Shown in pieces: positions 10,493-53,254 of a DNA stretch of 64,000 bases. The stretch is from Peptococcaceae bacterium UBA5318 (GTDB lineage: Bacteria; Bacillota; Peptococcia; DRI-13; UBA5318): contig DHRG01000013.1 of the NCBI GenBank assembly GCA_002408285.1, positions 4,536-68,535 of the forward strand, given 5' to 3'. The position numbers were made by a program, and so were the translations under genes. How positions within the stretch are numbered: position 1 is the first letter of the stretch; each line of letters begins with the position of its first letter. Under the pieces are notes generated by a model. The model saw only the letters and a program-made list of their open reading frames with translations. It was not told where the DNA came from and made no database searches.

Positions 10493-11992
10493 TTATTGAT
10501 CACGGCTCTTTAGGAAAACCGCCCGCTCTTGTTCCACCCATTCCACCTGAAAACCCATGCGCTCGGCCAGGTAACGCAGGGGGATCATGGAGCGGTTCTC
10601 CCTGATTGTCAGGTAGGGCGCAGCAAAAGCCTGTTCCAGGGCCCCTTTTTTCACGATAGCCTTATGTTCATGAGGCAGCCACTGCACCTGGCCGCCCAGT
10701 TTCTCGCCGAGGGCCCGGAGAGGCAGGATGACCCGCCCCTGCTCGATATAGGGTTCCGCATCGGGGAAGGGCAACAGTTCTCCGTCCAGCCATACCCGGA
10801 TCCTTTCGGCAGCGGGGGCCGGGGTTAAAAGGCGGGGGAGGTTGTAGGGATCAAGGGGCAGAGCGCGCAAACCATTGTTCCACATGTCGGAAATATAGAG
10901 AACGCCATCATGATAGAGGAGATCCACAGGACCGTTCAGCATGGACGTGGAGGTCTCCGCGGTCCGGCCGGCTCTGCCGGTGCCGGCGATGGTGATTGCC
11001 TCGCCCTGGGGCGTCAGCGCTCTGACCCTGTGGTTCCAGGTATCGGCGATAAAGATGACGCCGTTGGGCGCAAGGTCTATTCCTTTGGGGAAATTAAACC
11101 TGGCCTCGGCCCAGGCGCCGTCCCGGTAGGCCCCCGGCGCATAATCGGTCTCCTCTTCCCTTAGATCCCGGAAACCGGCCAGTGTGGAAACCTGCAGGTC
11201 TTGGATTTTTCTGACCAACTGGTTGCCGCTGTCCAACACATAAAGCGCCCCGTTTCCGGCCAGGGCAAGCCCGGCCGGTTCGTTGAACCGAGCCCCGCCG
11301 ACCGGACCGTCCCGGTAGCCTCCGTTGGGGCCCGCTTGGCCGGCCAAGGTAGATACAAGTCCTTGGGGCGTTATTTTCCGGATCACATTGTTCAGGGTGT
11401 CGGAAACATAGAGATTGTCGTGTTCATCGATGGCCAACCCAGAAGGCGCGTTGAACCGGGCCTGGTTCCCCGTGCCGTCTTGATAGCCCGGCCGGCCGTT
11501 CCCCGCAAAAGTGCTGACTCTGCCGCCGGAAATTTTGCGGATGGCGTGGTTGCCGGTATCCGCCACATAAATCGTGTTGGCGGAATCCACGACTATACCC
11601 CGGGGATTTCTGAAACGGGCCTTTTCCGCCGCTCCGTCTACATACCCGCCGGCCGGAAACCCAAAAGCGTCAAAACTGTCGGAAAAGCCGGCCACCGTGG
11701 TAACCTGGTCGCCCGCAATCTTCCTGATCCGGTTATTGTGGGAATCTGCCACGATGATCTGGTTGTCCTTGTTGGCAGTCAGGCCGTAGGGAAAGCGGAA
11801 ATCCGCTTCCAGCCTGCTTCCGTCCTGGTAGCCAAATTCCCCGGAGCCCGCATAGAAGGTGGGGACAGAGCCGGAGGCCGGAAGGGAGAAGCCCGTCAAT
11901 ACCGCGATGAGCAGGAAAAGGGCCGGCCAGATGAATCTGCCGGGGGCAGCGCGGCGGAACCGGGCCTTGGGCAAGGGCTGGGCCGATGGCAT
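10493..11992 (-). CDS. NHL-repeat beta-propeller protein with a C-terminal copper-amine-oxidase-N-terminal-like (stalk) domain
   Basis: Six repeats of the type ADSHNNRIRKI / ADTGNHAIRKI / SDTLNNVIRKI / LDSGNQLVRKI / ADTWNHRVRAL / SDMWNNGLRAL are present. The C-terminus reads ILPLRALGEKLGGQVQW...MIPLRYLAERMGFQVEW. The start is at 11992 (GGGAGG 8 nt upstream). The track start at 12043 lies inside the repeat element. Confidence 0.8.
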   Translation of the reverse strand: MPSAQPLPKARFRRAAPGRFIWPALFLLIAVLTGFSLPASGSVPTFYAGSGEFGYQDGSRLEADFRFPYGLTANKDNQIIVADSHNNRIRKIAGDQVTTVAGFSDSFDAFGFPAGGYVDGAAEKARFRNPRGIVVDSANTIYVADTGNHAIRKISGGRVSTFAGNGRPGYQDGTGNQARFNAPSGLAIDEHDNLYVSDTLNNVIRKITPQGLVSTLAGQAGPNGGYRDGPVGGARFNEPAGLALAGNGALYVLDSGNQLVRKIQDLQVSTLAGFRDLREEETDYAPGAYRDGAWAEARFNFPKGIDLAPNGVIFIADTWNHRVRALTPQGEAITIAGTGRAGRTAETSTSMLNGPVDLLYHDGVLYISDMWNNGLRALPLDPYNLPRLLTPAPAAERIRVWLDGELLPFPDAEPYIEQGRVILPLRALGEKLGGQVQWLPHEHKAIVKKGALEQAFAAPYLTIRENRSMIPLRYLAERMGFQVEWVEQERAVFLKSRDQ

Positions 11993-12041
11993 ATGGCATT
12001 CCTCCCTGAAAAATTTACCGCAAAAGCGTGATCGTCCGTTC

Positions 12042-12251
12042 ATAAACAGAGTTCTTAGCTTCAGTGGGAGTTTTAACTCCCCACTGAAGGTTAGCCGCTC
12101 TCGGACATCCGTGTCCTCCGCGGCATTAGGCCGTCCGTGGCCGTTAGAAATCGTTATCCAGGAGCTTAGCGCCGCTTATCTCCCGCTTTTGGGTTATAGC
12201 TTCCAGCTCCAGAAAGAAGTGGGAGTATTAGCGACGGTTAGCTATCGGATA
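12042..12251 (+). repeat. Structured intergenic repeat, copy 2 (long form, 210 nt)
   Basis: It shares both termini and the hairpin core with copies 1 and 3 and carries about 50 nt of extra internal GC-rich sequence. Its right end (TTAGCTATCGGATAG) supplies the last codons and the stop of the MBL gene. Confidence 0.85.
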
Positions 12252-13092
12252 GAGAAAGGATCATTCCTTCCTTGGCCGCTAAACATTGAGGGAAGCGGGC
12301 CCGAGCCAATTGTTCGATCTCATCAAGTTCCTGATCGCTTCTCCGGGGGCTGTGGTGAAATAAGATAAGCCTCCCCACGCCCGCTTGGCCGGCCAGTTTA
12401 ACAGCCTCCTGCCAGGTTGAGTGCCCCCAGCCTTTTTGAGCGGGGCGTCCCGCCTGCCCCAGATACTCCTCGTCGGTGTAGGTGGCGTCGTAGATCAGCA
12501 GGTCGCAGTCCCGGCAGAACTCCGCTAAGTTTTTATCCGTCACGGCATGATGCTCATGGTCGCCAAGATAACAGACGGAATGTCCGTTAAGCTGCAGGCG
12601 GTAAGCGGTGTTTCCCATGGGATGGTTGGTGGGGGCGGTTTTGACCGTTATTCCCCCCTCCAGGCCGAACTCCTGCCCTGCCTCTATTTCCCGGAAAACC
12701 ACCTCTGCCTTCATTTGTTCTAGTCCAATGGGGAAGAAGGGGGCCTGCATCTGCCTGGCGAAGAGTTCCGTCAGGGGAAAACCCGGTTTGCCTTCCCCAT
12801 AAACAGTGAAATGGTTCCCCCGGACAAAGGCCGGCTCAAAAAAGGGAAACCCGTGAATATGGTCCCAATGGACATGGGAAATGAGGAGATGGGCTTTTGC
12901 CGCACCGGTCCTTTCCATCCATTCTTGGCCGAGATTGCAGAGCCCTGTCCCCGCGTCAAAAATCACCTGGGTTGCTCCTGCCTGCACCTGGATGCAGGCG
13001 GTATTCCCGCCATATTTCAGGGTGTTTTTGCCGGGAACCGGTCTGGAACCCCTTACCCCCCAAAAGGTGACGGAGATTTGCACCGGGTTCAT
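12238..13092 (-). CDS. MBL-fold metallo-hydrolase (possible cyclic-nucleotide phosphodiesterase)
   Basis: The metal-binding motif HLLISHVHWDHIHGFPFF is followed by ...YLGDHEH..., ...DATYTDEEY... and ...WGHST... The phosphodiesterase role is inferred only from the adjacent cyclase gene. Confidence 0.75.
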   Translation of the reverse strand: MNPVQISVTFWGVRGSRPVPGKNTLKYGGNTACIQVQAGATQVIFDAGTGLCNLGQEWMERTGAAKAHLLISHVHWDHIHGFPFFEPAFVRGNHFTVYGEGKPGFPLTELFARQMQAPFFPIGLEQMKAEVVFREIEAGQEFGLEGGITVKTAPTNHPMGNTAYRLQLNGHSVCYLGDHEHHAVTDKNLAEFCRDCDLLIYDATYTDEEYLGQAGRPAQKGWGHSTWQEAVKLAGQAGVGRLILFHHSPRRSDQELDEIEQLARARFPQCLAAKEGMILSLSDS

Positions 13093-13187
13093 CCCTGCTC
13101 CCTCCTCGCTATAAAGTGAATCCCTATGCGGAGAGCGGTTTAAGCTCCTCCGCCTATTATTGGTTTGAGCTAATCCCGGAGCGCCGG

Positions 13188-15032
13188 TTAATCTTCGGGC
13201 AAAATTCCCTCCAACTGGTAGACGGCCAGCCGCTGGCTCTTGCCTTTCACCGTTATTTCGCCGAGGCCGCTAACTTTTACCTGTTCTTTCACCCGTTCGT
13301 AAGTGGACTGGCTTAAGAGGATTTGCCCCGGCTTGGCATTGCTTTCCAGCCTGGCGGCGGTGTTGACCGTATCGCCGATGGCCGTATAATCCATGCGGAA
13401 CTGGGCCCCGATATTGCCGACGATGGCTTCGCCCGTATTGATGCCCACGCCGAAATCAACGGTGCGGCCGTATTTTGCCAGCAGCCGCTCCTTCATCTGT
13501 GCGCTCCCTTCCTGCATGACCCAGGCCGCCTGCGCCGCTTTCAGGGCATGGTCGGGCAAGTCAAGGGGCGCGTTGAACAGGGCCATGGCGGCGTCGCCGA
13601 TAAACTTATCCAGGGTCCCGCCATAGGCAAAGATGGCCCGGGCGCAAAGGTCCAGGTATTCATTGAGGACTTCTACAACTTCTTCGGGTTCGGCCTTTTC
13701 GGAAAAAGGCGTAAAACCACGAATGTCCGCAAACAGGACGGTTATTTCCCGACGCACCCCGCCCAGCTTGAGGCCGGCTTCGCCGGAGGTCAGGATTTCC
13801 TTGACCACCTGGGGCGCCACGTAGCGTCCGAAAACCGCGGTAACACGTTTGCGTTCCAGCAATTCTTCCAGGTAGTGATAAAAGAGGCCCAGCAGATAGC
13901 AGGCAACGGCCAGCCCCACCGGGTAGAGGAGGGACAACAGCCAACCTTTTTGATAGAGCAGCCTGGCCGTTGCTCCATAGCCGAGGATCAGGGCGGCGGC
14001 CACAAAGACAGCCCGCCCCGGGCTTAATTTGCGCAAGGCCCAGATGCTGACGCCGGTAAAAAGCAGCAGGACGGCCAGGATGGACCAATAGGGCGCCTGC
14101 TGTTTAAAGTCGCGGTATAACAGGTTCTGAATAATGTTGGCATGTATTTCTACGCCAAACATGGCGGTCTGGTGGTCCAGCGGCGTGGGATAGGAATCGT
14201 GGAGGCCGACGGCATAAGGCCCCACCAGGACGATCTTGTCTTCAAAATAGGCCGGAGGGATTTCGCCGTTCAAGACCTGGTAAAAGGAGAAGCGTTCATA
14301 ATCGCCGGGTCTTCCCTGGTAATTGATATGGATCCTGTTCCAGGGATCCGTGGGCACAAGGTCCGGGGAATAAGCCTGTCCCCTTGTCTGTAAATAGGCG
14401 TTGGCGATTTTCCAGGCAAAACTGGGGATGGTTTCTTCCTGGTAATCGTAAAAAAGAACCGTCTTTCGCACCACGCTGTCGGGGTCCGGGAAGGTATTGA
14501 CGTGCCCGCTGAGGGCCTGCGCCTTAAGCAGCGGTACGGCTTCCTTCAGGTCGGCGGGCTGCAGCTTGCTTCCGGTCCGGACTGTTCCGCTGAAATAACC
14601 CACCGCGGGCAAGACGGTATTTTCGGTTTTATCCAGGGCTTGGGCCAAGGCCAGATCCTCAGCCGGCTGGGGGTCCGGTTCGGAAAACAGGATGTCGATT
14701 CCCACCGCCGCAGGTTTCCCCTGCGCCAGCTTTTCCAGAAGTTCGGCATGGGTGCTGCGCGGCCACGGCCACCTGCCCAGTTTTTCCAGGCTGGGCTCAT
14801 CGGCGGCAATAATGACGATCCGGCTGTCCACCCGGCCTTTGCCCTGATAGAGCCAGTCCTGGGCCATATTGTCCATATTCTCCCCCACATTGGCATAGGA
14901 GAGGATGGCGAAAACAAGAAAGGCGACTGCCAGCAAGAAGGATAATTTTATTTTCAAAGGGGTTCCTGCCTTTCTCCGGCAATTTAAAAAACATGTTCCC
15001 ATTATCCTACCATTTTTTTCAGGACTTTTCAT
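13188..15032 (-). CDS. CHASE2 sensor domain-containing class III adenylate/guanylate cyclase
   Basis: The order is an N-terminal TM, a periplasmic CHASE2-like region (RIVIIAADEPSLEKLGRWPWPRSTHAELL...), three TM helices, then a cyclase domain: VTVLFADIRGFTPFSEK...GGTLDKFIGDAAMALFNAP...FGVGINTGEAIVGNIG...YTAIGDTVNTAARLES. The start could be the internal ATG at 15002. Confidence 0.85.
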   Translation of the reverse strand: MKSPEKNGRIMGTCFLNCRRKAGTPLKIKLSFLLAVAFLVFAILSYANVGENMDNMAQDWLYQGKGRVDSRIVIIAADEPSLEKLGRWPWPRSTHAELLEKLAQGKPAAVGIDILFSEPDPQPAEDLALAQALDKTENTVLPAVGYFSGTVRTGSKLQPADLKEAVPLLKAQALSGHVNTFPDPDSVVRKTVLFYDYQEETIPSFAWKIANAYLQTRGQAYSPDLVPTDPWNRIHINYQGRPGDYERFSFYQVLNGEIPPAYFEDKIVLVGPYAVGLHDSYPTPLDHQTAMFGVEIHANIIQNLLYRDFKQQAPYWSILAVLLLFTGVSIWALRKLSPGRAVFVAAALILGYGATARLLYQKGWLLSLLYPVGLAVACYLLGLFYHYLEELLERKRVTAVFGRYVAPQVVKEILTSGEAGLKLGGVRREITVLFADIRGFTPFSEKAEPEEVVEVLNEYLDLCARAIFAYGGTLDKFIGDAAMALFNAPLDLPDHALKAAQAAWVMQEGSAQMKERLLAKYGRTVDFGVGINTGEAIVGNIGAQFRMDYTAIGDTVNTAARLESNAKPGQILLSQSTYERVKEQVKVSGLGEITVKGKSQRLAVYQLEGILPED

Positions 15033-15062
15033 TGACTATTTTGTTGTGTTCAAGCCATCTCT

Positions 15063-16709
15063 TTACTCCTGGTTTGGCAACCTGTATTTTTTCGGCCCAT
15101 AATGGAAGGCTTCGGTCGGGATGGCCACGCCGCAGGCTCTCAACTGCTGGGCCCGGGAAACAACGGCAGCCCCTTCCAACAGGTTGAAGGCGATTTGAGC
15201 GACGGTGCGGTTCCCTGGGTCCTCCAGGAAAGAGCCCTTGGTCCAGGCATTAAAAGCCCCCATGGCCGGCCCGCAAAAAATCTGATAATCAAGCTCCCGC
15301 CCTTTTTCTCCGGTAATGGCCCATTGGCTGGCCTTTCCCAAATACCAGCGAAACACCAGGGCCATTTTATGCCTGGGGTCCCTGGCGGCCCGCTGGAGCT
15401 GGCCGGGGTCCCTTTCTTGAAAAAAGCGGGCCGTCTCCTCCCATATTTTCTCCCAAGAGTCCCTGAACACGGTGGCCTCCACCTTCCGGCGAATATCCGC
15501 GGGTATTTGCTCCAGGGAGGAATAGCGCCGATAGAGGTCATACAACTGCGCGGCCCGGGGAGCAAACAGGGCGCCCAGCTTGAGCACCTGCACCTTGGCG
15601 CCTTGCTCGAACATATCCGCCGACGGGGCCATGGCCACGTCACTGATGTCCGCTTGGGCCAGCAGGGCTTTCCCCGCCTGGGAAAGACCGGATTCCACAG
15701 CGGCCTGATGGATCGTCCCTACCACGATATAAGCGGCGCCGTGCGCAAAGGCCGCCGCCGCCGCCGCAGGCGTGCCGATCCCGCCGGCCGCACCCACACG
15801 GATAGGACGGCGGTATGAAAAACGCCGCATGCACGCCTCCCTGGCCTGCAATACCGTGGGGAAAAGCGCCCCCAGGGGCCGATTGTCCGTATGGCCGCCG
15901 GAATCCGCTTCCACGGTAATATCTTCCGCCAGCGCGATTTGGGCAGCGCATTGGGCCTCCGCAGGGGATAGTTTGCCCTGCTCCACCAACTGCTCCAGCA
16001 GCCTGGCCGGCGGCGGGGACATAAACTGCCCGGCCAGCTCGGGCCTGGAGATTTTGGCGAAAAGGTAATGCTTCCTGTGGATGGCGCCCTGGGCATCGCG
16101 CCATAAGCCCTTGGCCGCATACCTGACCAGAGCGGGGGTGATCCCCAGGAAGGCTGAGGCCGAAAGGCGCAAGACGTTGTAATGCAGAAACAGATCAACC
16201 AGCAATTCTTCCCTTTGCGGCTCCTGGGGGGAATGGATCAGGTTGATGCCCCAGGATTTGTCCCCCGCGCCCTGTTGGATGACCTGAATAGCTCGCTCCA
16301 CCCGCGGCAGGGGCAAGCCGGCCGCGCCGAAAAAGCCCAGCAGATGGCGCCTGGCCATTTCCAGGACCATTTCTTCCGAGGCAATGCCATGGGCCATTTC
16401 ACCGCCGATATAGGGGAATTGGACCCCGTGCACCTCCTGAAAGCTGCGGTCCCCCAGCCACTCGGGATATTGGGGCGCCAATACGGCCAGCACCGGATAG
16501 CTCTGGGGAGCGGCGGACTCAGGCCGGGCAGGGGCGAAATGCCCGCCGACGGCCATGCCGACCGCTCCGCTCCCTTCGTCTCTGATCACATAGGTTTGTT
16601 GTCTGATATCCTTGAGCAGCCCGCCTGTTTCCCAGGGGAAAAAAGCCGGCTTCCTGTCGCCTTCAAGCCAAAAACCAATGGTGGGACGGCTTGTATCTGC
16701 CTGACGCAT
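15063..16709 (-). CDS. pfaD: PfaD-family trans-acting enoyl reductase (nitronate monooxygenase fold) of a PUFA-synthase-like PKS
   Basis: The product is 548 aa. It has a PfaD-like N-terminus (IGFWLEGDRKPAFFPWETGG...YVIRDEGSGAVGMAVGG) and a TIM-barrel FMN region (...GMAHGIASEEMV..., ...ITVEADSGGHTDNRP..., ...RVGAAGGIGTPAAAAAAFAHGAAYIVVGT...). Confidence 0.85.
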   Translation of the reverse strand: MRQADTSRPTIGFWLEGDRKPAFFPWETGGLLKDIRQQTYVIRDEGSGAVGMAVGGHFAPARPESAAPQSYPVLAVLAPQYPEWLGDRSFQEVHGVQFPYIGGEMAHGIASEEMVLEMARRHLLGFFGAAGLPLPRVERAIQVIQQGAGDKSWGINLIHSPQEPQREELLVDLFLHYNVLRLSASAFLGITPALVRYAAKGLWRDAQGAIHRKHYLFAKISRPELAGQFMSPPPARLLEQLVEQGKLSPAEAQCAAQIALAEDITVEADSGGHTDNRPLGALFPTVLQAREACMRRFSYRRPIRVGAAGGIGTPAAAAAAFAHGAAYIVVGTIHQAAVESGLSQAGKALLAQADISDVAMAPSADMFEQGAKVQVLKLGALFAPRAAQLYDLYRRYSSLEQIPADIRRKVEATVFRDSWEKIWEETARFFQERDPGQLQRAARDPRHKMALVFRWYLGKASQWAITGEKGRELDYQIFCGPAMGAFNAWTKGSFLEDPGNRTVAQIAFNLLEGAAVVSRAQQLRACGVAIPTEAFHYGPKKYRLPNQE

Positions 16710-17119: not shown

Positions 17120-19564
17120 TTATCCATGAAGCCACGCGGAAAACTCCTCCAGCCAGTTCTCCTTCGCGGCGTCTTCGTTGCCGGGCCGCCCGGCTCCAGC
17201 GTGATTTAACACCCGCAAGGTTTCCGAGGATTTATCATCCAGTTCCCTTAAGACCTGGAGAATGACGGCCCGAGCTTCATCTAAGGCCGCCTCCTGCCTG
17301 AGTTTTTCCACTTTGCCTTGGAACAGGCCATCGCCGGGAGAAGGGGTTTCGGCTGCCAAGGGCGGCCCGGTGGTATTTAAGGCCGTGAGAATTTTTTCCT
17401 TCCGTTGGGCATAGGGTAAAGCCGCCAACTCGGCGGGCCAAAGGGGTGGGCCGAGATGGACGGATTGCCTGCCGTAGCGATAGGGAAACTCCAATTTCTG
17501 CGCCAAAGGTTCCAGGGGCAATCCCCCGGCGAAACGCACCGGCACAAGGGGAAGCTGGAGTTCTAAGGCCAGGTCGATAAACACGGAACTGACTTTTTCC
17601 ACGGGTTTTCGGCATTGCAGGGCCCGTGTCCCTTCCGCATGGACGAGGAGGGAGAGGCCTTGCTCCCGTATTTTCTGCCTGATGTCTTGCAGCAGGTGAA
17701 GGAGGGAGGCTTGGTCCTGACGGTCGAAATAGAAGACATGGAGCAAACTGCCGTTGATCCCGGGGTATTGACCCATTTTCTCCAGCAGTTGGCCGATCCA
17801 GGTGCTTTTTTGATGCTCCTTTTTGGCAATGATGCCCACGGGCTGCCTGGCCAGCGCCGAGGTAAGATAGATAAAGAGGTGGGCTTCCACCGTCGTTTGG
17901 TGATTGGCCAGATAGAGCACAGGCCTGGCCTGCTCCAGCAGGGCCTGATAAACCGCCGCGTCTTCTACCTGGTACTCGCTGATGAATTGCCGGGCCAGCC
18001 CGGCGAAAATATCCTCCGCAACCCATTCCTGGAGGCCCAGCCGCTCTCTCCAGTATTGCCTGGCCTTAGCAATGTCCAGCTTCTCCGCGGCTCCCTTCAC
18101 CAAGATCCCTGCGCCCTTTTCCTGGCTGAACAGACGGTAGCGCCGCAGGGGGAATTCCGGATGGTACGCCTGGCAAAGGGATCCGCCTTCCTCCTCCAGG
18201 ATGATCTCGGCGGGATGTTTTTGCAACTGCGCGGCCACATACTCTTTGACGGCGATCCATGTGGTCTTCTTCTTCTCCGTCTGAGCCCCGGGGAGGGCAT
18301 AGACCTGTTCCAGGGCGCCGGGGAACCAATCCTGTTCTTTCACCCTGTCCAGGGGGAGAAAAAAGCCGTCCTCCCCTTGGTCGCCCAAGCTTGCCCCCGG
18401 AAGATAGTCTTCCTTCAGCAGAAAGCGTTTGCGGTCTCTCCTGGATAGTGCGCCCCATCTCCCTTGGGGAAAACAAATCCCCACCAGTTTCAGGGCCAGA
18501 ATGCTTTGCTCTCCCGCCGACATCGCAATGTCAAATTGCGGGAAACGCCTGTTTTCCTCGCGAAAACCGGCAAATCTCACCTCGCAGCGGACCTCGCCCG
18601 TCCTGGGAACAGGCGCATAAAATTCCACCCAGGGAACTTGCCGGGGATAACAAAAAAATTGTTCCATCGCAGGATCGGTCCACAGGGACAATTCATCATA
18701 GGGGATGGTCTGCAGCAGGCCGTCCAGCAGCCTGGGGTTTAAAATTCCGCCGGGCGCCGGACCGGGCATGGCGCTTGTTGCGGCGCTCGGCGCGGCGCTT
18801 AGTTGGGCGCGGGAGCCGTTGGCGCCGTAAAACAGCCGTTTGATAACCCGCAGCCGCGGTCCATGGAAGCAGAGATCCTGTCCGTAGGGATCTTCGATGG
18901 GCTGCGGCTCCTCGAGTTCCGGAAGGGCCGAAGGACGGGGCTTCTGGTAGTCATCACGGATTTCCACGTCGGCCGTCATCAGTGGTTCAAAGCGGGAGAG
19001 AGCAGCCGTTCCGGCTTCCCGCCAATACAAAAGGGTTGCTTTGATCCGGTGGGGGGCCAAAGCCGCAAGCTCCGTTTTGATCAGCTGCCGCTGCCCGCAC
19101 ACCAACCAGCGGTGCACCTGTACATCCCGCATGACGGTAATGACCTGCCGGGGATAGCTTTTTTGCACCTGTTGGGCTATTTTATCCAGCATGAACATAA
19201 AGGGGTAAGCCGGCAGGGTGTAGGTCGGGCAATGATCCCAGAGCCACTCCTCCCTTTTCGGGTCAATCCACACCGCCTCCCCCTCGCCGGCTGCGGCGGC
19301 AAAGGGAAGCCTTGTCAAGTCGGCAGCCTCCAGCAGGGAAGACATGGTGCGCACATAGGCTTGCCAGGCCGCGCTCATCTGCCGGACATGGTGCCGGTGA
19401 ACCGCGCTGAGTCCTTCATATAAATCAAGGATCTGCCGCGACCGCCCGTCTGCGGGATCTTCCCCGCTCCGGGCCGGGGCTGCCGGCCTTTTCGCCTCAT
19501 ACATGGCCATCACACCCGGAAGCTGGGGCGCAGGCTCCAAGGTCTGGACCTCACAGGAATTCAT
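17120..19564 (-). CDS. PKS-type dehydratase (double hot-dog) fused to a C-terminal PlsC/LPLAT (AGPAT-like) acyltransferase
   Basis: The N-terminal part carries WLWDHCPTYTLPAYPFMFMLD and a later LLDGLLQ (DxxxQ-like) motif. The C-terminus carries acyltransferase blocks: LANHQTTVEAHLF (an NHxxxxD-like block with E), HAEGTR (FPEGTR-like) and LPLVPVRF. I prefer the start at 19564 (GGGAGG 8 nt upstream, 14-nt overlap with psd) over 19603. Confidence 0.75.
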   Translation of the reverse strand: MNSCEVQTLEPAPQLPGVMAMYEAKRPAAPARSGEDPADGRSRQILDLYEGLSAVHRHHVRQMSAAWQAYVRTMSSLLEAADLTRLPFAAAAGEGEAVWIDPKREEWLWDHCPTYTLPAYPFMFMLDKIAQQVQKSYPRQVITVMRDVQVHRWLVCGQRQLIKTELAALAPHRIKATLLYWREAGTAALSRFEPLMTADVEIRDDYQKPRPSALPELEEPQPIEDPYGQDLCFHGPRLRVIKRLFYGANGSRAQLSAAPSAATSAMPGPAPGGILNPRLLDGLLQTIPYDELSLWTDPAMEQFFCYPRQVPWVEFYAPVPRTGEVRCEVRFAGFREENRRFPQFDIAMSAGEQSILALKLVGICFPQGRWGALSRRDRKRFLLKEDYLPGASLGDQGEDGFFLPLDRVKEQDWFPGALEQVYALPGAQTEKKKTTWIAVKEYVAAQLQKHPAEIILEEEGGSLCQAYHPEFPLRRYRLFSQEKGAGILVKGAAEKLDIAKARQYWRERLGLQEWVAEDIFAGLARQFISEYQVEDAAVYQALLEQARPVLYLANHQTTVEAHLFIYLTSALARQPVGIIAKKEHQKSTWIGQLLEKMGQYPGINGSLLHVFYFDRQDQASLLHLLQDIRQKIREQGLSLLVHAEGTRALQCRKPVEKVSSVFIDLALELQLPLVPVRFAGGLPLEPLAQKLEFPYRYGRQSVHLGPPLWPAELAALPYAQRKEKILTALNTTGPPLAAETPSPGDGLFQGKVEKLRQEAALDEARAVILQVLRELDDKSSETLRVLNHAGAGRPGNEDAAKENWLEEFSAWLHG

Positions 19565-20483
19565 CAAGATTCGCCTCCCTATCCTTTCGGGCTTGGCGGC
19601 CAACAGCCTCTCCCGCCAATACCTTCACCTCATAACCCTTTTCGGTCTGCAGCAGGATATCTTCATCAACCGCAGCCGTCCCTTTCTCCAAAAACAGCAG
19701 GATGGTCGAGCCGCCCAGCTTGAAGTAGCCTTTTTCCTCTCCCCTGGCAACGATGGCGTCCGGCCGATAGATTTGCACGATGGAACCCACAAAAGCGGCG
19801 CCGATCTCCACGTAGGCGATGTCCCGGAAGTTCGCGGACCGCAGGATGCTGACTGCCCTCTTGTTCCGGCAAAAAAGCGCCGGGATGGCCTGCAAGGCCA
19901 GGGGATTCACGGAATAGTAACAGCCTTTGAGGCCTTTGCTGGCGGTGCACCTTCCGCTGTCGATGAAATGGAAGCGATGGTAGTCGGCCAGCCCAAGGCG
20001 CAAGGCCAGGCATACCCCGCCTTGATACTTGCGGGCCAGCCCCCTGTCCCCCAGAAGCTCTTCCAGGGTGTAAGAAAAACCTTTGACCTGGATCACGCGC
20101 TCAATGTCGATATTGGCCCAGGCCCGCATCTTCCCGTCCCCGGGCGATACGAGGAGACGGGGATCCGCCGCAAACTTGCGGGCTTCCGGTTTGAGCTTCC
20201 GGGCAAAGAAGGCGTTAAAATTGGGGAAATCTTGGGGCTCCTGGAGGCACTCCGACAGATCGAGGCCGTGCTCTTCCGCAAAGCCTTTGATTTTACGGGC
20301 GCTGAAGGGAAAATCATGCAGCTTGCCAAGGATAAAGGGGTAAATCTTCCGTTTCAACAGCAGTTCAAGCCCCAGCCGGCCCAGGGCCGTATGGTAGATG
20401 CGCCTGATCGCCTCTTCGCCCGCCACCTTCTCGGTTTCATAGCCCTTCGTTTTTCTGTTGTAAATTTGATAGCTTTTGCTCAT
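19551..20483 (-). CDS. psd: Phosphatidylserine decarboxylase proenzyme
   Basis: Family-typical segments are present: ...FFARKLKPEARKF..., ...LADYHRFHF... and the self-cleavage region GYFKLGGSTILLF. Confidence 0.85.
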   Translation of the reverse strand: MSKSYQIYNRKTKGYETEKVAGEEAIRRIYHTALGRLGLELLLKRKIYPFILGKLHDFPFSARKIKGFAEEHGLDLSECLQEPQDFPNFNAFFARKLKPEARKFAADPRLLVSPGDGKMRAWANIDIERVIQVKGFSYTLEELLGDRGLARKYQGGVCLALRLGLADYHRFHFIDSGRCTASKGLKGCYYSVNPLALQAIPALFCRNKRAVSILRSANFRDIAYVEIGAAFVGSIVQIYRPDAIVARGEEKGYFKLGGSTILLFLEKGTAAVDEDILLQTEKGYEVKVLAGEAVGRQARKDREANLDEFL

Positions 20484-20539: not shown

Positions 20540-21151
20540 TTATATTCTGAGCAAGCCCGTGATGATGGCCGCCGGAATGAGTACATACAACGACTTGGTA
20601 AACCAGCCGTTCTTATCATAGCGGAAGGAGGAATTCATCAGGAGGGCCAAGAGGATAAACAAAGGATAGCAAAAAGAGAGGGGTCCTCCCCGGAAAAAAG
20701 CCAGGTACAGGATGAGGGCCAGGAAGACCAGGGCGCCGGCGTGGGTCGTACAGAGCCCTGTAAAGCAGTTTTTGCCCCGAACCTTGACCAAGCCTTCCAG
20801 GTTATAATTGGCCAGCCGCCACAGGCCCGACAGGGCGTAGAGATAAAGGGCCCCTCCGGCCGGCAGGCCCTTAAAACCCAGGGAATAGGCCATGAGGGCC
20901 GGAAGGACGGCAAAATTAACAACATCGGCCAGGCTGTCCAGTTCCCTGCCAAACTCCGTTTCCAACTGAAGTCTGCGGGCCGCCATTCCGTCCAGCCGAT
21001 CGGACAGCAAAGCCAGGGCATAAAGGACCAAGGCCGGCTGATAACTTTCTTGTGAAAATAGCAGGTAGGCGCTAAGCCCCGCGCCTAGGGAAAAGGCCGT
21101 GATGAGATTGGGAAGATTGAGATGTTTCAGGGTGGGAAAAATTTTAAGCAT
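20540..21151 (-). CDS. pssA: CDP-alcohol phosphatidyltransferase, most likely CDP-diacylglycerol--serine O-phosphatidyltransferase
   Basis: The motif DRLDGMAARRLQLETEFGRELDSLAD fits D-G-x2-A-R-x8-G-x3-D-x3-D. The protein is polytopic. The PssA assignment is supported by the adjacent psd. Confidence 0.75.
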   Translation of the reverse strand: MLKIFPTLKHLNLPNLITAFSLGAGLSAYLLFSQESYQPALVLYALALLSDRLDGMAARRLQLETEFGRELDSLADVVNFAVLPALMAYSLGFKGLPAGGALYLYALSGLWRLANYNLEGLVKVRGKNCFTGLCTTHAGALVFLALILYLAFFRGGPLSFCYPLFILLALLMNSSFRYDKNGWFTKSLYVLIPAAIITGLLRI

Positions 21152-22877
21152 GTTGCACCTCCGCGAAGTGCCTTTTCATATAGAAGTATTCCTCGGAGAA
21201 CCCATGCACGCCCTGGCGCCTGAGGATTTTTTTCCCGATCAGGGGATGGCCGTACAGCGAATTTACCAGGGCCAAGGCCTCTTCGTAGCCGATCCCCTCC
21301 TTGATCCCATAGGTGGAGGGTTCGTCCGCCACAACGCGCCCTTCCTTGGCAACGATGCCGTACTGCTCCAGATGCCTGTCGATATGGCTGCCCTTGGCCA
21401 AAACCCAGGGGTTGGCGCTGATCACGGCTATTTTGTCATGGTTCCTTTCCAGAAAAGCAATGGTCTCCTGGGCCTCCTCCCTGGTTTCCGAGGGGAACCC
21501 AAACATCACATGCAATTCCACGGCAATGCCGTTTTCAGCGCACTTATCCAGCGTAAGCTGGGCGGTTTCCCGGCTGTAGCCCTTGCGCATCGCCGAGACA
21601 ATCCGCCGGCACCCTGATTCAAAACCGAGGGAAAGAAAGCGGCAGCCGGCTTGGGCCGCCAGTCCGATACTATCCGGCAGCCCTTTTTCAAAACGCATCA
21701 TCGTGCCGAAACGGATGTTGATTCCCTCCTGCAAAATCCGCTCCGCTAAAAACCGCAGGGTTGCAGGGGCCATGGCTTCATCGGCAAAGACGATAAAATC
21801 TATGCCGTAGTCCTCGCGATACAACCGAATATTCCGGATGATCCTTTCCGGGGGCAGCGGGCGCCACTTGCTCCCAATCGTTTCGGCCAGCGCGCAAAAG
21901 GCGCATTTGTTCCAATAGCAGCCGCGGGAAGACATCAGCGGCGCAAAGACCAGGGGCGTCAGATATTTTTTGCCTACCGGCAGACCCTTTAAGTCCAGCA
22001 GGGGCAATTTAGCAGGCTCCATGGTTTTCGCCTGGCGATTGATTTTCAGGACCTCCCCCTTCCGGTCGTAGTAGAGGAGCCGGGGGAGCCCCCCAGGCTG
22101 TTCCTTCTTCTCCAGGCAGCGGCACAAGGCCAGCAGCGGTTCTTCGCCTTCCCCGTAAATACCGAAGGGCTGTAACAGCCGGCGCAGGCCCTCTTCCTGT
22201 TTGTTCCCGGCGCAGCCCGTACCGCTCCCGTCTTGGACGGCATCGCACAGGAGGGAAAAAAACGAGCCCCCGCATACCATCGGAACTTTCAAGGCGCTTC
22301 TTATTTCCGCGGTCAGCGCCAAGCCGGGGTACAACTGGCTCTCGTAATTATAGGAGAGGCCGATCAAGTCCGGCTGAAATGCGGCGATCTGCGGGATCAG
22401 CTTTTTTTGATAGTAGGCCAGGAAGGGGTTTTCCCCTGCGTTCTCCAGCATGCCTTCCCTTGAATAAAGACAGTTCAGCGTATAGATGGTGGGCAAATTC
22501 GCCAAGGACGTAAACAGCAGGACATTGTTGACGGCTGCGGTCGCTCTCTCGAAGTTATCCTTGGTGACGGCGAAGCCTTCTTCGCGCCACACCTCTTGGA
22601 CAACGGCAAAATCCTCCTCGATCCCGCCGCTGACTTTACTTATCTCTTCTTTTTGCGGATAAGAGCATGCCGGACCCACGGAGGCTAAGAAGCCCTTGGC
22701 CTCTTGAATTTTATCCCGCAGCCTTTCCGGAAACAGCTGAAAATGCAGGAACTCTATGGAAGCGTCAATCGTGGCCACCTCGAGGCCCTCCTGGCGCAAA
22801 TAGGAGGATAAGGCCATGATACTGAGTGGGGGTGTAAAAGGCGCCAAACCGGGAGGGCTTAATAAAACAACTTTCAT
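21144..22877 (-). CDS. B12-binding-domain-type radical SAM enzyme
   Basis: The N-terminus is Rossmann-like ([34 protein letters not shown]...DLIGLS). The cluster motif is SSRGCYWNKCAFCAL, and FLSLGFESG and later barrel strands follow. The three Cys are spaced Cx4Cx2C. Confidence 0.8.
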   Translation of the reverse strand: MKVVLLSPPGLAPFTPPLSIMALSSYLRQEGLEVATIDASIEFLHFQLFPERLRDKIQEAKGFLASVGPACSYPQKEEISKVSGGIEEDFAVVQEVWREEGFAVTKDNFERATAAVNNVLLFTSLANLPTIYTLNCLYSREGMLENAGENPFLAYYQKKLIPQIAAFQPDLIGLSYNYESQLYPGLALTAEIRSALKVPMVCGGSFFSLLCDAVQDGSGTGCAGNKQEEGLRRLLQPFGIYGEGEEPLLALCRCLEKKEQPGGLPRLLYYDRKGEVLKINRQAKTMEPAKLPLLDLKGLPVGKKYLTPLVFAPLMSSRGCYWNKCAFCALAETIGSKWRPLPPERIIRNIRLYREDYGIDFIVFADEAMAPATLRFLAERILQEGINIRFGTMMRFEKGLPDSIGLAAQAGCRFLSLGFESGCRRIVSAMRKGYSRETAQLTLDKCAENGIAVELHVMFGFPSETREEAQETIAFLERNHDKIAVISANPWVLAKGSHIDRHLEQYGIVAKEGRVVADEPSTYGIKEGIGYEEALALVNSLYGHPLIGKKILRRQGVHGFSEEYFYMKRHFAEVQHA

Positions 22878-25800
22878 CAGGTGTTGCTCCTTTCCTCAAA
22901 GGCAACCGCCAGCATCAGCTTGATCCTGTTTAACTGGTTTACCTCGCTCGCGCCCGCATCATAATCCACCGGAATGATATTGGCCTGGGGATACCTTCTT
23001 TTCAACTCCTTCATCATTCCTTTCCCCGTTATTTGGTTGGCCAGGCAGGCAAAAGGCTGGACGCACACGATATTCCCGACGCCGCTCTCCAACTGCTCCA
23101 GCATCTCGCCCGTCAAGTACCAGCCTTCGCCGGCCTGATGGCCCAAAGACAGGAGCTCGCCGGCCCTTGCGGCCATGTCCCTCAGCGTGGGAGGCGCTGT
23201 AAACTTGCGGCTGCCTCGCAGCGCCTTTTTCATGTCTTGGCGGTAGTACTCCAGCACTTCTATGACAATTTTATCCGCCCACAGCTTCCTTTTGCTCCAG
23301 GAAAGCTTCTTGTATTTGAAGTCGGAGTCAGAGGCATTATAGAGGAGATAATTCATGAGGCCGGGGAGTATGACTTCCACCCCGCTGTCCTCCAGGATTT
23401 CCACGATATTGTTATTCCCCAGGGGATGGTACTTGACAAAGATCTCGCCCACCACCGCCACCTTGGGTTTGCTGATCTCCCGGGTTTCCAGGGCGTCGAA
23501 GTCCTCCACAATCCCGTAGAGGTTCTTGGAAAACTCGGCCTGACTGCCGCTGCCCACGGACTCCCTGCACCTTTCCACCCATTGTTCATACAGGCGCTTG
23601 GCAGCCCCCGGAATTTTTTCATAAGGCCTCACCTGGTGCAATACCTGCAGCAACAGGTCGCCGTAAACAATGCTCATGATAAACCTCTTGAGCAGGCCCG
23701 GAGTCATGTGGACGGCCTGAGGGCCGCCGCCCAGGGCCGTAGGAACGAAGGGGATTACCGGTATGGCCGCCAAGCCGGCGGCCGCCAGTCCTTTCTTCAT
23801 AAAGCCGAGGTAATTGGTGGCCCGGCACATCCCCCCCGTCTTATAGACGGCCACGGCGATATTATCCAGGTCATACCGGCCGGAGCGCAAAGCCTTGATG
23901 CACTGGCCGATGAGAACCACGGCGGGGTAGCAGGCCTCCTGAGTGACATATTTCAGGCCCTCCTCCAGCACATCCCTGGCTTCGGCCGGCCCTGCGGCCA
24001 AGACCTCCAGATCGTAGCCGCAAGCCTGGAAGGCCGCCTCAAAAAACTGGTCGTGGAAAGGGGACAACTGGTAGAGCAAAATTTTAGGCTTTGCGGCCTT
24101 TGCTCTTGGGGGCAATTGCGCGTTCCCGGACTGGGCCGCCTGCAACAAGGGGGGCGCGGTCTTTCTCTCCTCAAGGGCCGCTTGCAAAGAGCGGAGCCGG
24201 ACCCTGAAGATGCCCTTTTGACTCATTTCATCGATTTTAATGGCGGTATGGATCTTCCGGCCCTTTTTCAAGAGCTCCCTGACCTGTTCCAGGGCGATGG
24301 CATCAAGACCGCAGCCGAAGGAATTGAGCTGAACCAACTCCAGGTTGTCACGAGCGCTCACCAGGGCGGCGGCCGCGTAAAGCCTGGACTGGTACATCCA
24401 CTGGTCGACGAAGAGAAGAGGCCTTTCGATCCGGCCCAAGTGGGCAAGGGACTGGACGGAGAGCACGGCCATCCCTAGATCCAGGATCATCTCGTCAATC
24501 CTGTGATTGACCTCAGGGTCCAGGTGATAGGGTTTGCCCGCCAGCACGATCCCCGTTGTTCCCGTTCGTTCCAGGTACTCCAGGGTTTCCTCGCCTTTTT
24601 TCCGCAGATCCTCCTTGACCTGCCCAACCTCTTCCCGGCCCCGCGCCACCGCGGCGGCTATTTCTTTTTTGGTGACGCCGAACTCTTGCAATTCCTCAAA
24701 GAGCCTTTGCGCCAGCCTTCCTTCGTCATGGTACGGTAAAAAGGGGCTTAAGAAGCGAACCTGCCCGTCCCGCAGGATGTCCATATTATTCCGGATGACC
24801 TCGGGATAGGAGGTCACAATGGGGCAGTTGTAGTGGTCGTCGGCTCCCGCCATCTCCTTTTGCTCATAGGGAAGGCAAGGATAAAAAATCGTTTTGATCC
24901 CCCGGCGAACCAGGGAGGCGATATGCCCGTGGACCAATTTCGCAGGATAACACAGCGTTTCCGAAGGGATGGTGTCCATGCCCTCTTCATAAATGGCCCG
25001 GGAGGAAAGGGGGGACAGTTCTACCCTGAACCCCAGGCTGGTAAAGAACACGAACCAGAAGGGATAGTTCTCGTACATATTGAGTACCCGGGGCAGGCCG
25101 ACGGCGCCCCGGGGGGCTTGCTCCAGGGGTAAGGGGATGTAGGAAAACTTCCTTTGCAATTCATAAGCGAAGAGATTGGGGATCTCCTTGTTTTTGCGGT
25201 TATCACCGGCCCCCCGCCGGCATTGATGGCCCGAGACAATCCTGGCGCAGTGGTTAAAGGTATGGATGGCGACGGCGCAGTGATTCGGGCATTTCTCACA
25301 CCTTTGCAAGGTTTGCAGGACCCGCAGTTCCCGCAACTGCCCCTCTTGGAGCAAGGTGCTCTCCTGCCCTTCCCGGTACCCCTCCCGGGCGGCCAGGGCC
25401 GCCCCCAACGCCCCCATCAGGCCCGCCAGCGCGGGTCTGACCACCTTTCTTCCCGCCAGGAGTTCAAAACAACGCAAGACGGCGTCGTTTAGAAAGGTCC
25501 CGCCCTGGACGACGATGTTCTCACCCAGATCCGCGGGGTTTCTGACGTTGATCACCTTTATCAGCGCGTTTTTGATCACCGCGTAGGATAAGCCTGCGGC
25601 GATGTCCGCCAGGGAAGCGCCCTCCTTCTGGGCTTGTTTGACTCTGGAATTCATAAAAACGGTGCACCTGGTGCCCAGATCAACGGGCTGCTGCGCCGCC
25701 AAGGCGGCGGTGGCGAATTGCCCGATATCCATGTTCAAGGATTTAGCAAATGTTTCCAGGAAGGACCCACAACCGGCCGAACAGGCCTCGTTCACGAGAA

Positions 25801-27136
25801 TGCCGGCGATGGCGCCCTCCCGTATTTTCAGGCACTTCATATCCTGCCCGCCGATATCCAGGATGAAATCAACCCCGGGCAGAAATTTGCGGGCGGCCTT
25901 GTAGTGGGCGATGGTTTCTACCACGCCGAGATCGAGGCCCAGGGCGGTTTTCAACAGCCCTTCCCCATAGCCTGTTACCGCCGAATTGGCGATGACCGCC
26001 TGTGCCGGCAGACGCCGGTAGATCTGGCCCAGGATTTCCCGGGCTTTCTCCAAAGGCCTTCCTTCATGATTGGCGTAGTAGGAATAGCGTATCTCCTCTT
26101 CTTCATCGATCAGCACGGCTTTGATGGTGGTAGAGCCCGCGTCGATTCCCAGAAAGCAGCGGCCTTGCCAAGGGCCCTGCTCCTTGGTCTTCCCTGTTGC
26201 AGCCTGATGCCTCCTGTAAAAATCGGCTTTCTCCTGCTGATCCCTGAACAAGGGTGTCAGCCGCTTAACCTCCTCGGCCTCCATCTCGCCTGTGGACAAC
26301 ACTTTTTCCCGGAAAGCCGCAAAAGGCCTGCTTGCTTCCCCGCCGGCCGCCAGGGCCGCCCCGGCGGCCGCCAAAACAAGGGAATTCTCGGGCAGAATAG
26401 CAGCCTGCTCCGCCAGGCGCAAGGTTTCCTTGAATCTTTGCCGCAGGGCGGGCAAATAGGTAAGGGGGCCGCCCAAAAACAGCACCTTGCCTTGGATGGG
26501 CTTGCCGCAGGAAAGGCCGCTGACAATCTGGTTGACCACCGCCTGCAAAACGGAGGCGGCGATATCCTCCCTGCCGACGCCCTCGTTGATCAGCGGCAGG
26601 ATGTCCGTCTTGGCGAACACACCGCAACGGGAGGCGATGGGGTAGATGGTCGTATACCCGGCGGCAAGCTTGTCAAGGCCTGCCGGGTCCGTGTTCAGCA
26701 GCGCGGCCATCTGGTCGATGAAAGCCCCGGTCCCCCCGGCACAGATCCCGTTCATTCTCTGGTCGATGCCCGTTTTTTCAAAATAAAGGATTTTAGCGTC
26801 TTCGCCCCCCAGTTCAATAGCTACGTCCGCTTTTTCCCCGAGGGTCCTCAGGGCCTTGGCGGTGGCCGCCACTTCCTGGACATAGGCGGCTTCCAGCCAG
26901 CGGGCCAGGAGCACGCCCCCGGAACCCGTGAGGGCGAGGGTGATGTCCGCCCCCCCCAGGGCCGGCGTGGCTTGCTCCACCAACTCCGCCAGGGTCTCTT
27001 TTATCCTGGAAAAATGCCGCCTGTAGCTGCCGTACAAAAGCGTCTTGCCCTCCAACGCCACCAGTTTTATGGTAGTGGAGCCTATATCCAGCCCCACCTG
27101 CAACAATCTTTTTTCTTTGCCCATGCCCTTTACCAT
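22877..27136 (-). CDS. 1419-aa fused BCR/HAD-family protein: two BcrAD/BadFG-type activase ATPase domains plus 2-hydroxyacyl-CoA-dehydratase-like domains (PlsA/PlsR- or Ger-like candidate)
   Basis: There are two acetate/sugar-kinase-fold ATPase modules ([15 protein letters not shown]... and [15 protein letters not shown]...). A Cys-rich segment follows ([27 protein letters not shown]). The C-terminal half is HgdB/D-component-like and ends ...[38 protein letters not shown]. Confidence 0.8.
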
Positions 27137-36515: not shown

Positions 36516-36577
36516 AACCTGCCCTAAAGATGGAATTTTTCACATTGCCTTTATTTTATTTTCTTTGCCCCAAAATT

Positions 36578-36594
36578 TCATTGACAATTTTGCG
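36578..36594 (+). promoter_or_regulatory. 17-nt motif TCATTGACAATTTTGCG, copy C
   Basis: It lies about 63 nt upstream of the PKS gene start, on the opposite strand. Confidence 0.5.
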
Positions 36595-36897
36595 GTTTGA
36601 AAAAATTCCTTCCCGCCGCTCCAAACCGCCGGATATGTATATATCCCACAGCTTATAAGGAATGGAGCAGGGGCTAATGATCCTATTTTTTCAAATGCAT
36701 CTATGGAAAAACAAAAGAAGCCGACTGTATCATCAATCGGCTTCTTTCGACAAAATATTTTGAGAAGTTTGGTGAATATAGATGCCATCGGCGCGTGGAC
36801 TGAAAAACACCTTTTTCGACGCAAACCGAGAGCGAGGGATTGCCTGCGCGGTCTACCACGCTGAAAAAGTCGCTCAAATACATTTATGCCGTTTTGT

Positions 36898-37113
36898 TCA
36901 CATAATATGGAGCGCTCTTTTGTAGAGCGGATCAAATTCACATCCGCAGCTACCACATTCTTTATCCGCCTGCTTTATAGCAGCAATCAATTGATCTTTG
37001 TTTCCATTACCCTCAAGCCATGCTTTTGATGGAGCGGCAATGAAGTCCCATCCTGATTCAGCAAATTTCGTTATGATTTGAATCAATTCTTCGCGGTTTT
37101 TGTTTTCCATCAT
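36898..37113 (-). CDS. Hypothetical small protein (71 aa)
   Basis: A strong GGAGG ribosome-binding site lies 4 nt upstream of the ATGATG start. The composition is plausible (MMENKNREELIQIITKFAESGWDF...CGSCGCEFDPLYKRAL). I do not recognise the family. Confidence 0.4.
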   Translation of the reverse strand: MMENKNREELIQIITKFAESGWDFIAAPSKAWLEGNGNKDQLIAAIKQADKECGSCGCEFDPLYKRALHIM

Positions 37114-37780: not shown

Positions 37781-37783
37781 TAT

Positions 37784-51067: not shown

Positions 51068-51103
51068 AAAATCCTCCTTAAAAAAAATAATTAATAATAA
51101 CAA

Positions 51104-52647: not shown

Positions 52648-52759
52648 CTTTAAAAAGCCTCCCAATAGATTCGAGGATATTATCCGAATACATATAACAA
52701 AAAAAGAAACCCGACTAAAAAGGGTTTTATAATATAAAATGTCCTCGGGGTTTTGGAAA

Positions 52760-53244: not shown

Positions 53245-53254
53245 GGGGATCGCC

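Follow-up and report, generated by a model that had tools for sequence, protein, structure and literature searches.

In Minicystis rosea, the polyunsaturated fatty acid (PUFA) synthase subunit Pfa3 carries a polyketide synthase (PKS)-like dehydratase (DH), "DH4," directly before a 1-acylglycerol-3-phosphate acyltransferase (AGPAT) domain (Gemperlein et al. 2019, PMC6731297). When DH4 is placed in a different synthase, the product spectrum changes, and an H2270A substitution undoes that change (PMC6731297). The myxobacterial acyl chain "presumably" acylates 1-acylglycerol-3-phosphate (PMC6731297, PMC4882568), and the myxobacterial literature places PUFAs at the sn-2 position (PMC6731297). We analyzed a 64,000-nucleotide stretch of DNA from Peptococcaceae bacterium UBA5318 (assembly GCA_002408285.1, contig DHRG01000013.1, positions 4,536 to 68,535), called here the window, in which a single open reading frame (ORF; 17120-19564, minus strand) encodes an 814-residue protein of the same DH-acyltransferase type, followed by a stop codon. 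Comparisons of its sequence, predicted structure and gene neighborhood make it fairly likely that this DH4-acyltransferase (DH4-AT) protein is a free-standing termination module of a Pfa-type iterative synthase, which would release the chain by acyl transfer into glycerophospholipid.

Relation to the C terminus of Pfa3

Residues 100 to 814 are collinear with the DH4-AGPAT C terminus of M. rosea Pfa3 (37% identity, E=4e-118). An earlier note on this DNA, made by reading the sequence without database searches, had pointed to the myxobacterial AGPAT domain as a parallel, and the link now has direct homology behind it. The two proteins share the order PKS-type DH, inter-domain region, acyltransferase and helical tail, as well as the NHQxxxE, EGTR and PxVPV blocks, and His111 aligns exactly with H2270 when M. 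rosea Pfa3 is numbered from its GTG start. They differ in context. In M. rosea, the module ends a protein of ~2950 residues with a ketosynthase (KS), a chain-length factor (CLF), an acyltransferase (AT), FabA, FabA, DH4 and AGPAT in this order, whereas in the window it is a separate protein of 814 residues with its own leader. The window cluster adds CdsA, PssA and Psd, a Ger/PlsA-like enzyme and a radical-SAM enzyme, and its host is an anaerobic member of the Bacillota.

A word-index homology search returned only 4 matches, and an exhaustive HMMER search was used for the family. It yielded 478 cluster representatives at E<1e-30, and nearly every one shows query residues ~90 to 814 as a single block aligned to the C terminus of proteins of 2400 to 3000 residues, whose Pfam domains are KS-CLF-AT-FabA-FabA and then the DH4-acyltransferase module. 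When one genome per species was scanned, at least 477 species genomes contained relatives, almost always as fusions to KS-CLF-AT-FabA-FabA. Most hosts are myxobacteria; the others include Rhodocyclaceae, Acidobacteriota, Sericytochromatia, Paenibacillus and Cohnella. The DH-acyltransferase fusion is a member of this already described and widespread module and no novelty, and the newness attributed to it in the earlier note was overstated. The C-terminal DH4-AGPAT module of Pfa3/PfaC is present and collinear with the Pfa3-like proteins, but the KS-CLF and the two FabA modules are missing, the leader passing straight to DH4. The protein is thus a derivative of the Pfa3 C terminus and not a Pfa3.

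How this derivative may have arisen is indicated by its nearest relatives. The closest is the orthologue from Pelotomaculum terephthalicicum (P0005; 72-74% identity), followed by a metagenomic protein of 1660 residues (P0008, locus L082) in which two FabA-like dehydratase/isomerase modules (~820 residues) precede DH4-AT. By BLASTP, residues 1 to 76 match P0008 residues 1 to 120, and residues 87 to 812 match P0008 residues 942 to 1655, the latter with 58% identity. Because both ends of P0008 are matched and the residues between them are absent, the window protein is best described as a leader-FabA-FabA-DH4-AT ancestor that has lost both FabA modules, ~820 residues, in frame. The deleted architecture is common to the window protein and its P. 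terephthalicicum orthologue. The neighbors of P0008 are also alike, namely CdsA, the BBD enzyme (see below), PssA, Psd, a metallo-beta-lactamase (MBL)-fold protein, an NHL-repeat protein and a CHASE2 cyclase, but in L082 no radical-SAM gene separates the BBD enzyme from PssA.

A clear free-standing form is encoded by only two of the 80 best genomic loci, those of the window and P. terephthalicicum. Three others (L028, L030 and L039) have short upstream frames that may be frameshifts, and P0052 is part of a Pfa3 split into several ORFs. Of the database matches of ~700 to 800 residues that seem to stand alone, several open with the end of a FabA domain and are fragments or split genes. Besides the window protein and its P. 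terephthalicicum orthologue, only a further metagenomic protein, P0071, looks genuine. P0071 (823 residues; L083 2367-4838) is a free-standing leader-DH4-AT with no PKS within 15 kb. Its neighbors are an MFS transporter, a PlsC-like acyltransferase of 259 residues and a patatin/NTE-like phospholipase that binds cyclic nucleoside monophosphate (cNMP), a context in which the DH4-AT module might also serve phospholipid remodeling apart from a Pfa synthase.

The start of the gene was placed at the ATG at 19564, since a GGGAGG Shine-Dalgarno sequence lies ~9 nucleotides 5′ of it and P0005 and P0008 share the N terminus MxSxEVQTLEPAP with the window protein. An upstream TTG at 19603 was dropped as a candidate on the same two grounds. 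The start overlaps the 3′ end of the Psd gene, including its stop codon, by 14 nucleotides.

Domain organization

The Pfam Acyltransferase profile PF01553 matches residues 543 to 678 (E=3.5e-11, 43.5 bits against a cutoff of 23), and the PS-DH profile scores only just above its gathering cutoff (E=2.2e-5, 24.5 against 23.7 bits). With the fold comparisons described below, these matches bear out the two domain assignments of the earlier note, whose boundaries had to be redrawn. The motifs and fold of a PKS double-hotdog DH were confirmed, but the domain covers only residues ~95 to 400 and not the N-terminal ~500 residues given to it. Likewise, the lysophospholipid acyltransferase (LPLAT) blocks placed in the C-terminal ~250 residues are there, in a core of residues ~496 to 700 that is followed by a helical tail of 114 residues (Table 1).

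A search of PDB sequences with the family profile matched DH4 to CurK (E=8e-7), CurF and CurH, at about 1e-6. An AlphaFold model of the whole protein, built on 16 family members, has a predicted local distance difference test (pLDDT) score of 85.4 and a predicted template modeling (pTM) score of 0.80, with a pLDDT of about 90 in the DH region. In Foldseek comparisons, the modeled DH resembles CurH, MlnB, CurK and the PpsC DH with template modeling (TM) scores, TM(target), of 0.70 to 0.76 and E of about 1e-13 to 1e-11. Like these modular PKS dehydratases and CurF, DH4 is predicted to have a double-hotdog fold with a catalytic His and the Asp of a DxxxQ motif. His111 (19232-19234) lies in the motif WDHCPTYTLPAYP at positions 109 to 121, and Asp281 (18722-18724) belongs to LLDGLLQ at positions 279 to 285 and is the first residue of DxxxQ (Asp281-x3-Gln285). 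DH4 departs from the modular enzymes in having HxPTxxxPAxP in place of HxxxGxxxxP, with both catalytic residues present, and xFHGPxF (FHGP at 233 to 236) in place of GYxYGPxF.

The acyltransferase has block I NHQTTVE at positions 554 to 560 (17885-17902), block III HAEGTR at 642 to 647 and block IV PLVPVRF at 672 to 678. Block II, FYFDRQD at 611 to 617, is additional to the motifs quoted in the earlier note. The AGPAT subfamily TIGR00530 is the sole acyltransferase match in NCBIfam (E=1.3e-10), at 41.1 bits against a cutoff of 102.95, so that the domain is a divergent relative and not a canonical PlsC. In common with PlsC (E. coli; T. maritima 5KYM), it belongs to the PF01553 superfamily, has the four conserved blocks and presumably forms phosphatidic acid. 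Unlike PlsC, it has HX4E instead of HX4D, is soluble, is fused to a DH and has the 114-residue helical extension, and its donor is presumably the acyl carrier protein (ACP) of a megasynthase.

The C-terminal 325 residues were also modeled separately with AF2 (pLDDT 90.5), and the only confident solved neighbors of this model by Foldseek are glycerol-3-phosphate (G3P) acyltransferases (GPATs), namely human GPAT1 (8E4Y, E=1.2e-6), the algal plastidial GPAT of Myrmecia (8IA1, 4e-6) and squash GPAT (1K30/1IUQ, 2e-5). These are the nearest solved folds at TM-scores of 0.41 to 0.44, but sequence identity to them is 13 to 16%, and GPATs use HX4D and have no DH partner. The indications of the acceptor are therefore divided, the sequence lying nearest to the PlsC/AGPAT subfamily and the modeled fold nearest to solved G3P acyltransferases.

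No transmembrane segment was predicted anywhere in the protein (hydropathy maximum, 1.56), which is consistent with docking on the ACP of a soluble megasynthase. The inter-domain region of ~95 residues is confidently folded in the model and has no matches to known domains. It contains a near-invariant His-Pro pair (H450-P451; 18212-18217, minus strand), found in 151 of 152 family members, and also the invariant W413 and G416. Docking of the ACP and hand-over of the acyl chain are possibilities for its role.

Catalytic residues and selection

Residue conservation was assessed across 155 family sequences. The His of the DH is kept in 127/127 and its Asp in 146/146. The His of the acyltransferase is present in 154/155, and blocks II to IV are well conserved. 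The catalytic dyad of block I is H555-x4-E560, and strictly no Asp of an HX4D motif is present; the earlier note was correct in reading Glu at this position. As the Glu is invariant in 155/155 representatives, HX4E (NHQxxxE) is a signature of the family and not a defect. LpxM of Acinetobacter baumannii is an HX4E member of the same superfamily, and its E127 is critical for activity (PMC6286764). Given this active HX4E enzyme and the invariance in the family, the Glu was ruled out as an inactivating lesion. LpxM and LpxL share the superfamily and the natural HX4E with the window protein, but their acceptor is lipid A and they are membrane anchored, and no specific similarity of the window protein to them was detected in this analysis.

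The ratio of nonsynonymous to synonymous substitution rates (dN/dS) relative to the P. terephthalicicum orthologue is 0.32 over the whole protein and falls to 0.23 in each of the two catalytic cores, indicating that purifying selection has continued to act on the protein after the deletion.

The surrounding cluster

The DH4-AT gene lies in a tightly packed, operon-like array that includes CdsA, PssA and Psd, and the synteny of ten genes is preserved in P. terephthalicicum. Genes for a Pfa-type synthase are only partly represented. The PfaA homologue is split into a KS-AT-ACP protein and a ketoreductase (KR)-DH protein separated by ~11 nucleotides (32904-32916, minus strand) and has one ACP, in contrast to the several tandem ACPs of Pfa2/PfaA-type proteins. 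PfaD is present, the core of PfaC is absent, and PfaE, the phosphopantetheinyl transferase (PPTase), is internally deleted. By tblastn with FabA and KS-CLF regions, no FabA-like or KS-CLF sequence was found elsewhere in the window. Lacking both KS-CLF and FabA, the cluster is unlikely to produce PUFAs. A synthase with KS, AT, ACP, KR, DH, enoyl reductase (ER) and DH4, and without an isomerizing DH, would be expected to make saturated chains instead.

No thioesterase or terminal reductase domain was found by Pfam or NCBIfam in any large ORF of the island from 8.6 to 36.5 kb. The absence of such a release domain, which the earlier note had reported for the cluster, thus holds for all of these ORFs, with the caveat of the MBL-fold hydrolase at 12238-13092, which is weighed below.

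Two of the enzymes encoded beside DH4-AT suggest that the phospholipid may be further turned into an ether or otherwise modified lipid. One is a B12-binding radical-SAM enzyme. The other has the BBD architecture (two BcrAD_BadFG domains and DUF2229), which is reported to be conserved in organisms that make saturated alkyl ether lipids and to be the architecture of Ger, a validated glycerol ester reductase (Sahonero-Canavesi et al. 2022, PMC13159169, PMC13274423); the PlsA plasmalogen synthases are close relatives (PMC13159169, PMC13274423).

Linkage of related modules to genes for phospholipid synthesis

Genes for phospholipid head groups also accompany DH4-AT elsewhere. In three Cohnella species (L017, L025 and L052; ~12200-15330), a full-length Pfa3-type cluster is followed directly by PfaD, CdsA and PssA. 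In three metagenome-assembled genomes of Sericytochromatia (L027, L037 and L047), a Psd gene, accompanied by a weak match to CdsA, is found 1.5 to 3 kb downstream of pfa genes bearing DH4-AT, and in L082 the genes for CdsA, the BBD enzyme, PssA and Psd are directly upstream of P0008. We did not meet a recurrent pairing of AGPAT-bearing PUFA-type synthases with head-group genes in the literature searched. CdsA consumes phosphatidic acid, the expected product of the acyltransferase, and this recurrent synteny is the best available support for a coupling to phospholipid synthesis. The hand-over to CdsA, PssA and Psd proposed in the earlier note gains from this recurrence; the release by acyl transfer that would precede it is a step that we still infer.

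Proposed mechanism and alternatives

In the mechanism that we propose, the chain would grow on the one ACP that the PfaA-like KS-AT-ACP protein carries, and the reductive steps would fall to the split KR-DH protein together with PfaD, the enoyl reductase. DH4 (His111/Asp281) would act on 3-hydroxyacyl-ACP intermediates, like its myxobacterial homologue. The soluble LPLAT-type acyltransferase, with its His555/Glu560 dyad and blocks II to IV, would take the finished chain straight from the ACP thioester and esterify it to a G3P-based acceptor, most likely 1-acyl-G3P and possibly G3P. The co-encoded CdsA, PssA and Psd could then convert the resulting phosphatidic acid to phosphatidylserine and phosphatidylethanolamine (PE), and the product might be modified further by the Ger/PlsA-like reductase and the B12 radical-SAM enzyme encoded next to them. 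It is from the comparisons above that we infer the acceptor, the use of acyl-ACP as donor and the passage of the product into PE or ether lipids.

Several observations weigh against this mechanism. The function of the myxobacterial AGPAT domain is itself only presumed (PMC6731297, PMC4882568). The acyltransferase scores far under the cutoff of the AGPAT subfamily (41 versus 103 bits for TIGR00530), its sole sequence-profile match in the PDB, PlsC 5KYM, is marginal (E=0.076), and the nearest solved folds are G3P acyltransferases and not PlsC. The last point speaks for a variant of the mechanism in which the acceptor is G3P and the domain, like the plastidial GPATs, which are soluble and use acyl-ACP, would be a soluble acyl-ACP:G3P acyltransferase with sn-1 as its target, not one that acylates lyso-PA at sn-2. 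The lack of a transmembrane segment agrees with this variant, as does the action of characterized relatives of the adjacent Ger/PlsA-like enzyme on sn-1 ester bonds (PMC13274423), which would fit a cluster-made chain at sn-1. We nevertheless consider G3P an unlikely acceptor, as the only NCBIfam acyltransferase match is to the AGPAT subfamily, the only PDB sequence match is to PlsC, the TM-scores to GPATs are modest, and PUFAs are placed at sn-2 in myxobacteria (PMC6731297).

Other points against release by acyl transfer concern the state of the cluster, which has a single ACP and is without the KS-CLF and FabA modules of every characterized PUFA synthase. Its PPTase has lost ~125 central residues in frame (129 residues versus ~255 in P. 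terephthalicicum); the full-length P. terephthalicicum protein (L002 12430-13200) has FNLSHS and WTVKEA, and the window copy has lost FNLSHS, GxD and WTVKEA, so that activation of the ACP would need an unlinked PPTase. These losses, together with the match to P0008 minus residues ~121 to 941 and the foreign base composition of the island (57.6% versus 44.0% GC), would also be expected if the gene were the remnant of a decaying PUFA-synthase cluster with no useful role in this organism. That the other ORFs are intact and tightly packed with their active-site motifs kept, that the deleted architecture is shared with P. terephthalicicum at 72% identity along with the ten-gene order, and that dN/dS is 0.23 to 0.32 all weaken the case for a relic, and we regard it as improbable. 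The chain might also be released by hydrolysis, through the PfaA-type AT domain or the MBL-fold hydrolase, leaving the acyltransferase as an ordinary PlsC that uses the general acyl-CoA or acyl-ACP pool. Some fungal PKS systems have thioesterases of the MBL fold, marine PUFA synthases have been reported to off-load by hydrolysis, and the MBL-fold hydrolase accompanies the lipid genes both in the window and in L082. However, its best matches are to RNase Z and cyclic-nucleotide phosphodiesterase/Apyc1, its gene adjoins that of the CHASE2 adenylate/guanylate cyclase, with which it travels, fitting a role in signaling, and no copy of it turned up in the 22.4-kb locus of P. terephthalicicum. We judge it unlikely to be a hidden thioesterase. 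The covalent union of the acyltransferase with a synthase DH in 477 species argues for direct coupling to the synthase, and we consider hydrolytic release very improbable.

As a broader and tentative picture, which we consider rather doubtful in its entirety, the island may form a full line from malonyl-CoA to a specialized ether phospholipid. A Pfa synthase without KS-CLF and FabA would make a saturated or unusual long chain, DH4-AT would place it onto glycerol phosphate, CdsA, PssA and Psd would produce PE, and the BBD and B12 radical-SAM enzymes would form alkyl- or vinyl-ether, methylated or membrane-spanning lipids, all under cyclic-nucleotide control via the MsbA-like exporter and the CHASE2 cyclase.

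Features of the island and the window

The features are listed in Table 1. In the P. terephthalicicum orthologue of the BBD enzyme, residues ~427 to 664 are missing, roughly the second activase domain. A cyclic-nucleotide module stands beside the lipid genes, with the CHASE2 cyclase, the MBL-fold hydrolase and the MsbA-like exporter with its cNMP-binding domain. In L082 (1-3211), too, the related cluster is accompanied by the cyclase, an NHL-repeat protein and the MBL gene, in a different order.

Table 1. Coordinates, strand and supporting evidence of the DH4-AT gene, its parts and the surrounding features
Feature	Coordinates	Strand	Evidence
DH4-AT gene: leader, DH4, inter-domain region, LPLAT-type acyltransferase, helical tail	17120..19564	-	ORF, Pfam, ribosome-binding site; collinear with Pfa3 C termini
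N-terminal leader, residues 1-86	19307..19564	-	Helical, low confidence (pLDDT 27-65); homologous to P0008 residues 1-120 (BLASTP second high-scoring pair, E=2e-10)
PKS-type double-hotdog dehydratase DH4, residues ~95-400	18365..19282	-	Pfam PS-DH, PDB profile matches, Foldseek
Inter-domain region, residues 401-495	18080..18364	-	Family alignment, pLDDT about 83-95
LPLAT/PlsC-superfamily acyltransferase, residues ~496-700	17465..18079	-	PF01553, block conservation, AF2 model
Helical C-terminal extension, residues 701-814 (114 residues), conserved in the family	17123..17464	-	Predicted secondary structure, alignment
PfaA-like KS-AT-ACP, 1199 residues, single ACP	32916..36515	-	Pfam; TIGR02813 E=1e-287; active-site Cys, GHSYG and DSI present
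PfaA-like KR-DH (DH1), 777 residues, split second half of PfaA	30571..32904	-	Pfam KR; TIGR02813 positions 1877-2567; DH motifs
MsbA-like ABC exporter, C-terminal cyclic-nucleotide-binding domain	28341..30515	+	Pfam; kept with the cluster in P. terephthalicicum
CdsA, CDP-diglyceride synthase	27130..27972	-	PF01148 E=3e-44
Ger/PlsA-like ether-lipid enzyme (BBD), 1419 residues, 2x BcrAD_BadFG (PF01869) + DUF2229 (PF09989)	22877..27136	-	Pfam; TIGR00241
B12-binding radical-SAM enzyme	21144..22877	-	Pfam; weak matches to PhpK-type methylase and TIGR04072 "lipid biosynthesis B12/rSAM"
PssA-like CDP-alcohol phosphatidyltransferase	20540..21151	-	PF01066; TIGR00473 pssA E=1e-22, below cutoff
Psd, phosphatidylserine decarboxylase, directly upstream of DH4-AT	19551..20483	-	PF02666 E=1e-53; NF001941 373.6 bits, above cutoff
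Sfp-type PPTase (PfaE) remnant, 129 residues	16663..17052	-	Comparison with P. terephthalicicum L002; no family match
PfaD-family trans enoyl reductase	15063..16709	-	TIGR02814 617 bits versus cutoff 449
CHASE2 adenylate/guanylate cyclase	13188..15032	-	
MBL-fold hydrolase	12238..13092	-	Best matches RNase Z, cyclic-nucleotide phosphodiesterase/Apyc1 (weak)
Cyclic-nucleotide module	13188..15032, 12238..13092, 10493..12043; 28341..30515	-; +	

The lipid island (~8600-36515) is much richer in GC than the 44.0% of the rest of the window, and the orthologous P. terephthalicicum cluster is also GC-richer than its flank, which suggests that the island was acquired horizontally, about 15 kb from dnaA. 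Past its end lies a tRNA-Ser(TGA) gene (38895-38984, minus strand), with ~2.4 kb of small ORFs between (36540-38185); the translation of one of them (37784-38185) looks AbrB/MazE-like by eye. The window covers the chromosomal origin region, with dnaA, dnaN, recF, gyrB and gyrA on the minus strand and mnmE and mnmG (trmE/gidA) on the plus strand, ~50000-53900. The GC skew switches sign near 50 to 52 kb, and oriC is probably within a stretch of 35.6% GC at 52 to 54 kb.

Implications

What appears new here is a free-standing, FabA-less variant of the known DH4-AT module. The AGPAT domain has so far been studied only inside megasynthases of ~3000 residues, and its role in off-loading is still described with "presumably." A naturally free-standing, soluble DH4-AT of 814 residues is a tractable protein on which donor and acceptor could be defined, along with the part played by the invariant HX4E dyad, and if the self-contained ether-phospholipid line exists, it would provide the first stand-alone enzyme tractable enough to prove how off-loading of the Pfa3 type into lipids proceeds.

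The cluster joins a PKS-like fatty acid synthase with full PE head-group synthesis and Ger/PlsA-type ether-bond formation in a syntrophic anaerobe, which suggests a dedicated route to a specialized membrane lipid. It bears on current efforts to find bacteria that produce ether and membrane-spanning lipids and points to a possible specialized lipid in syntrophic anaerobes of the Peptococcaceae type.

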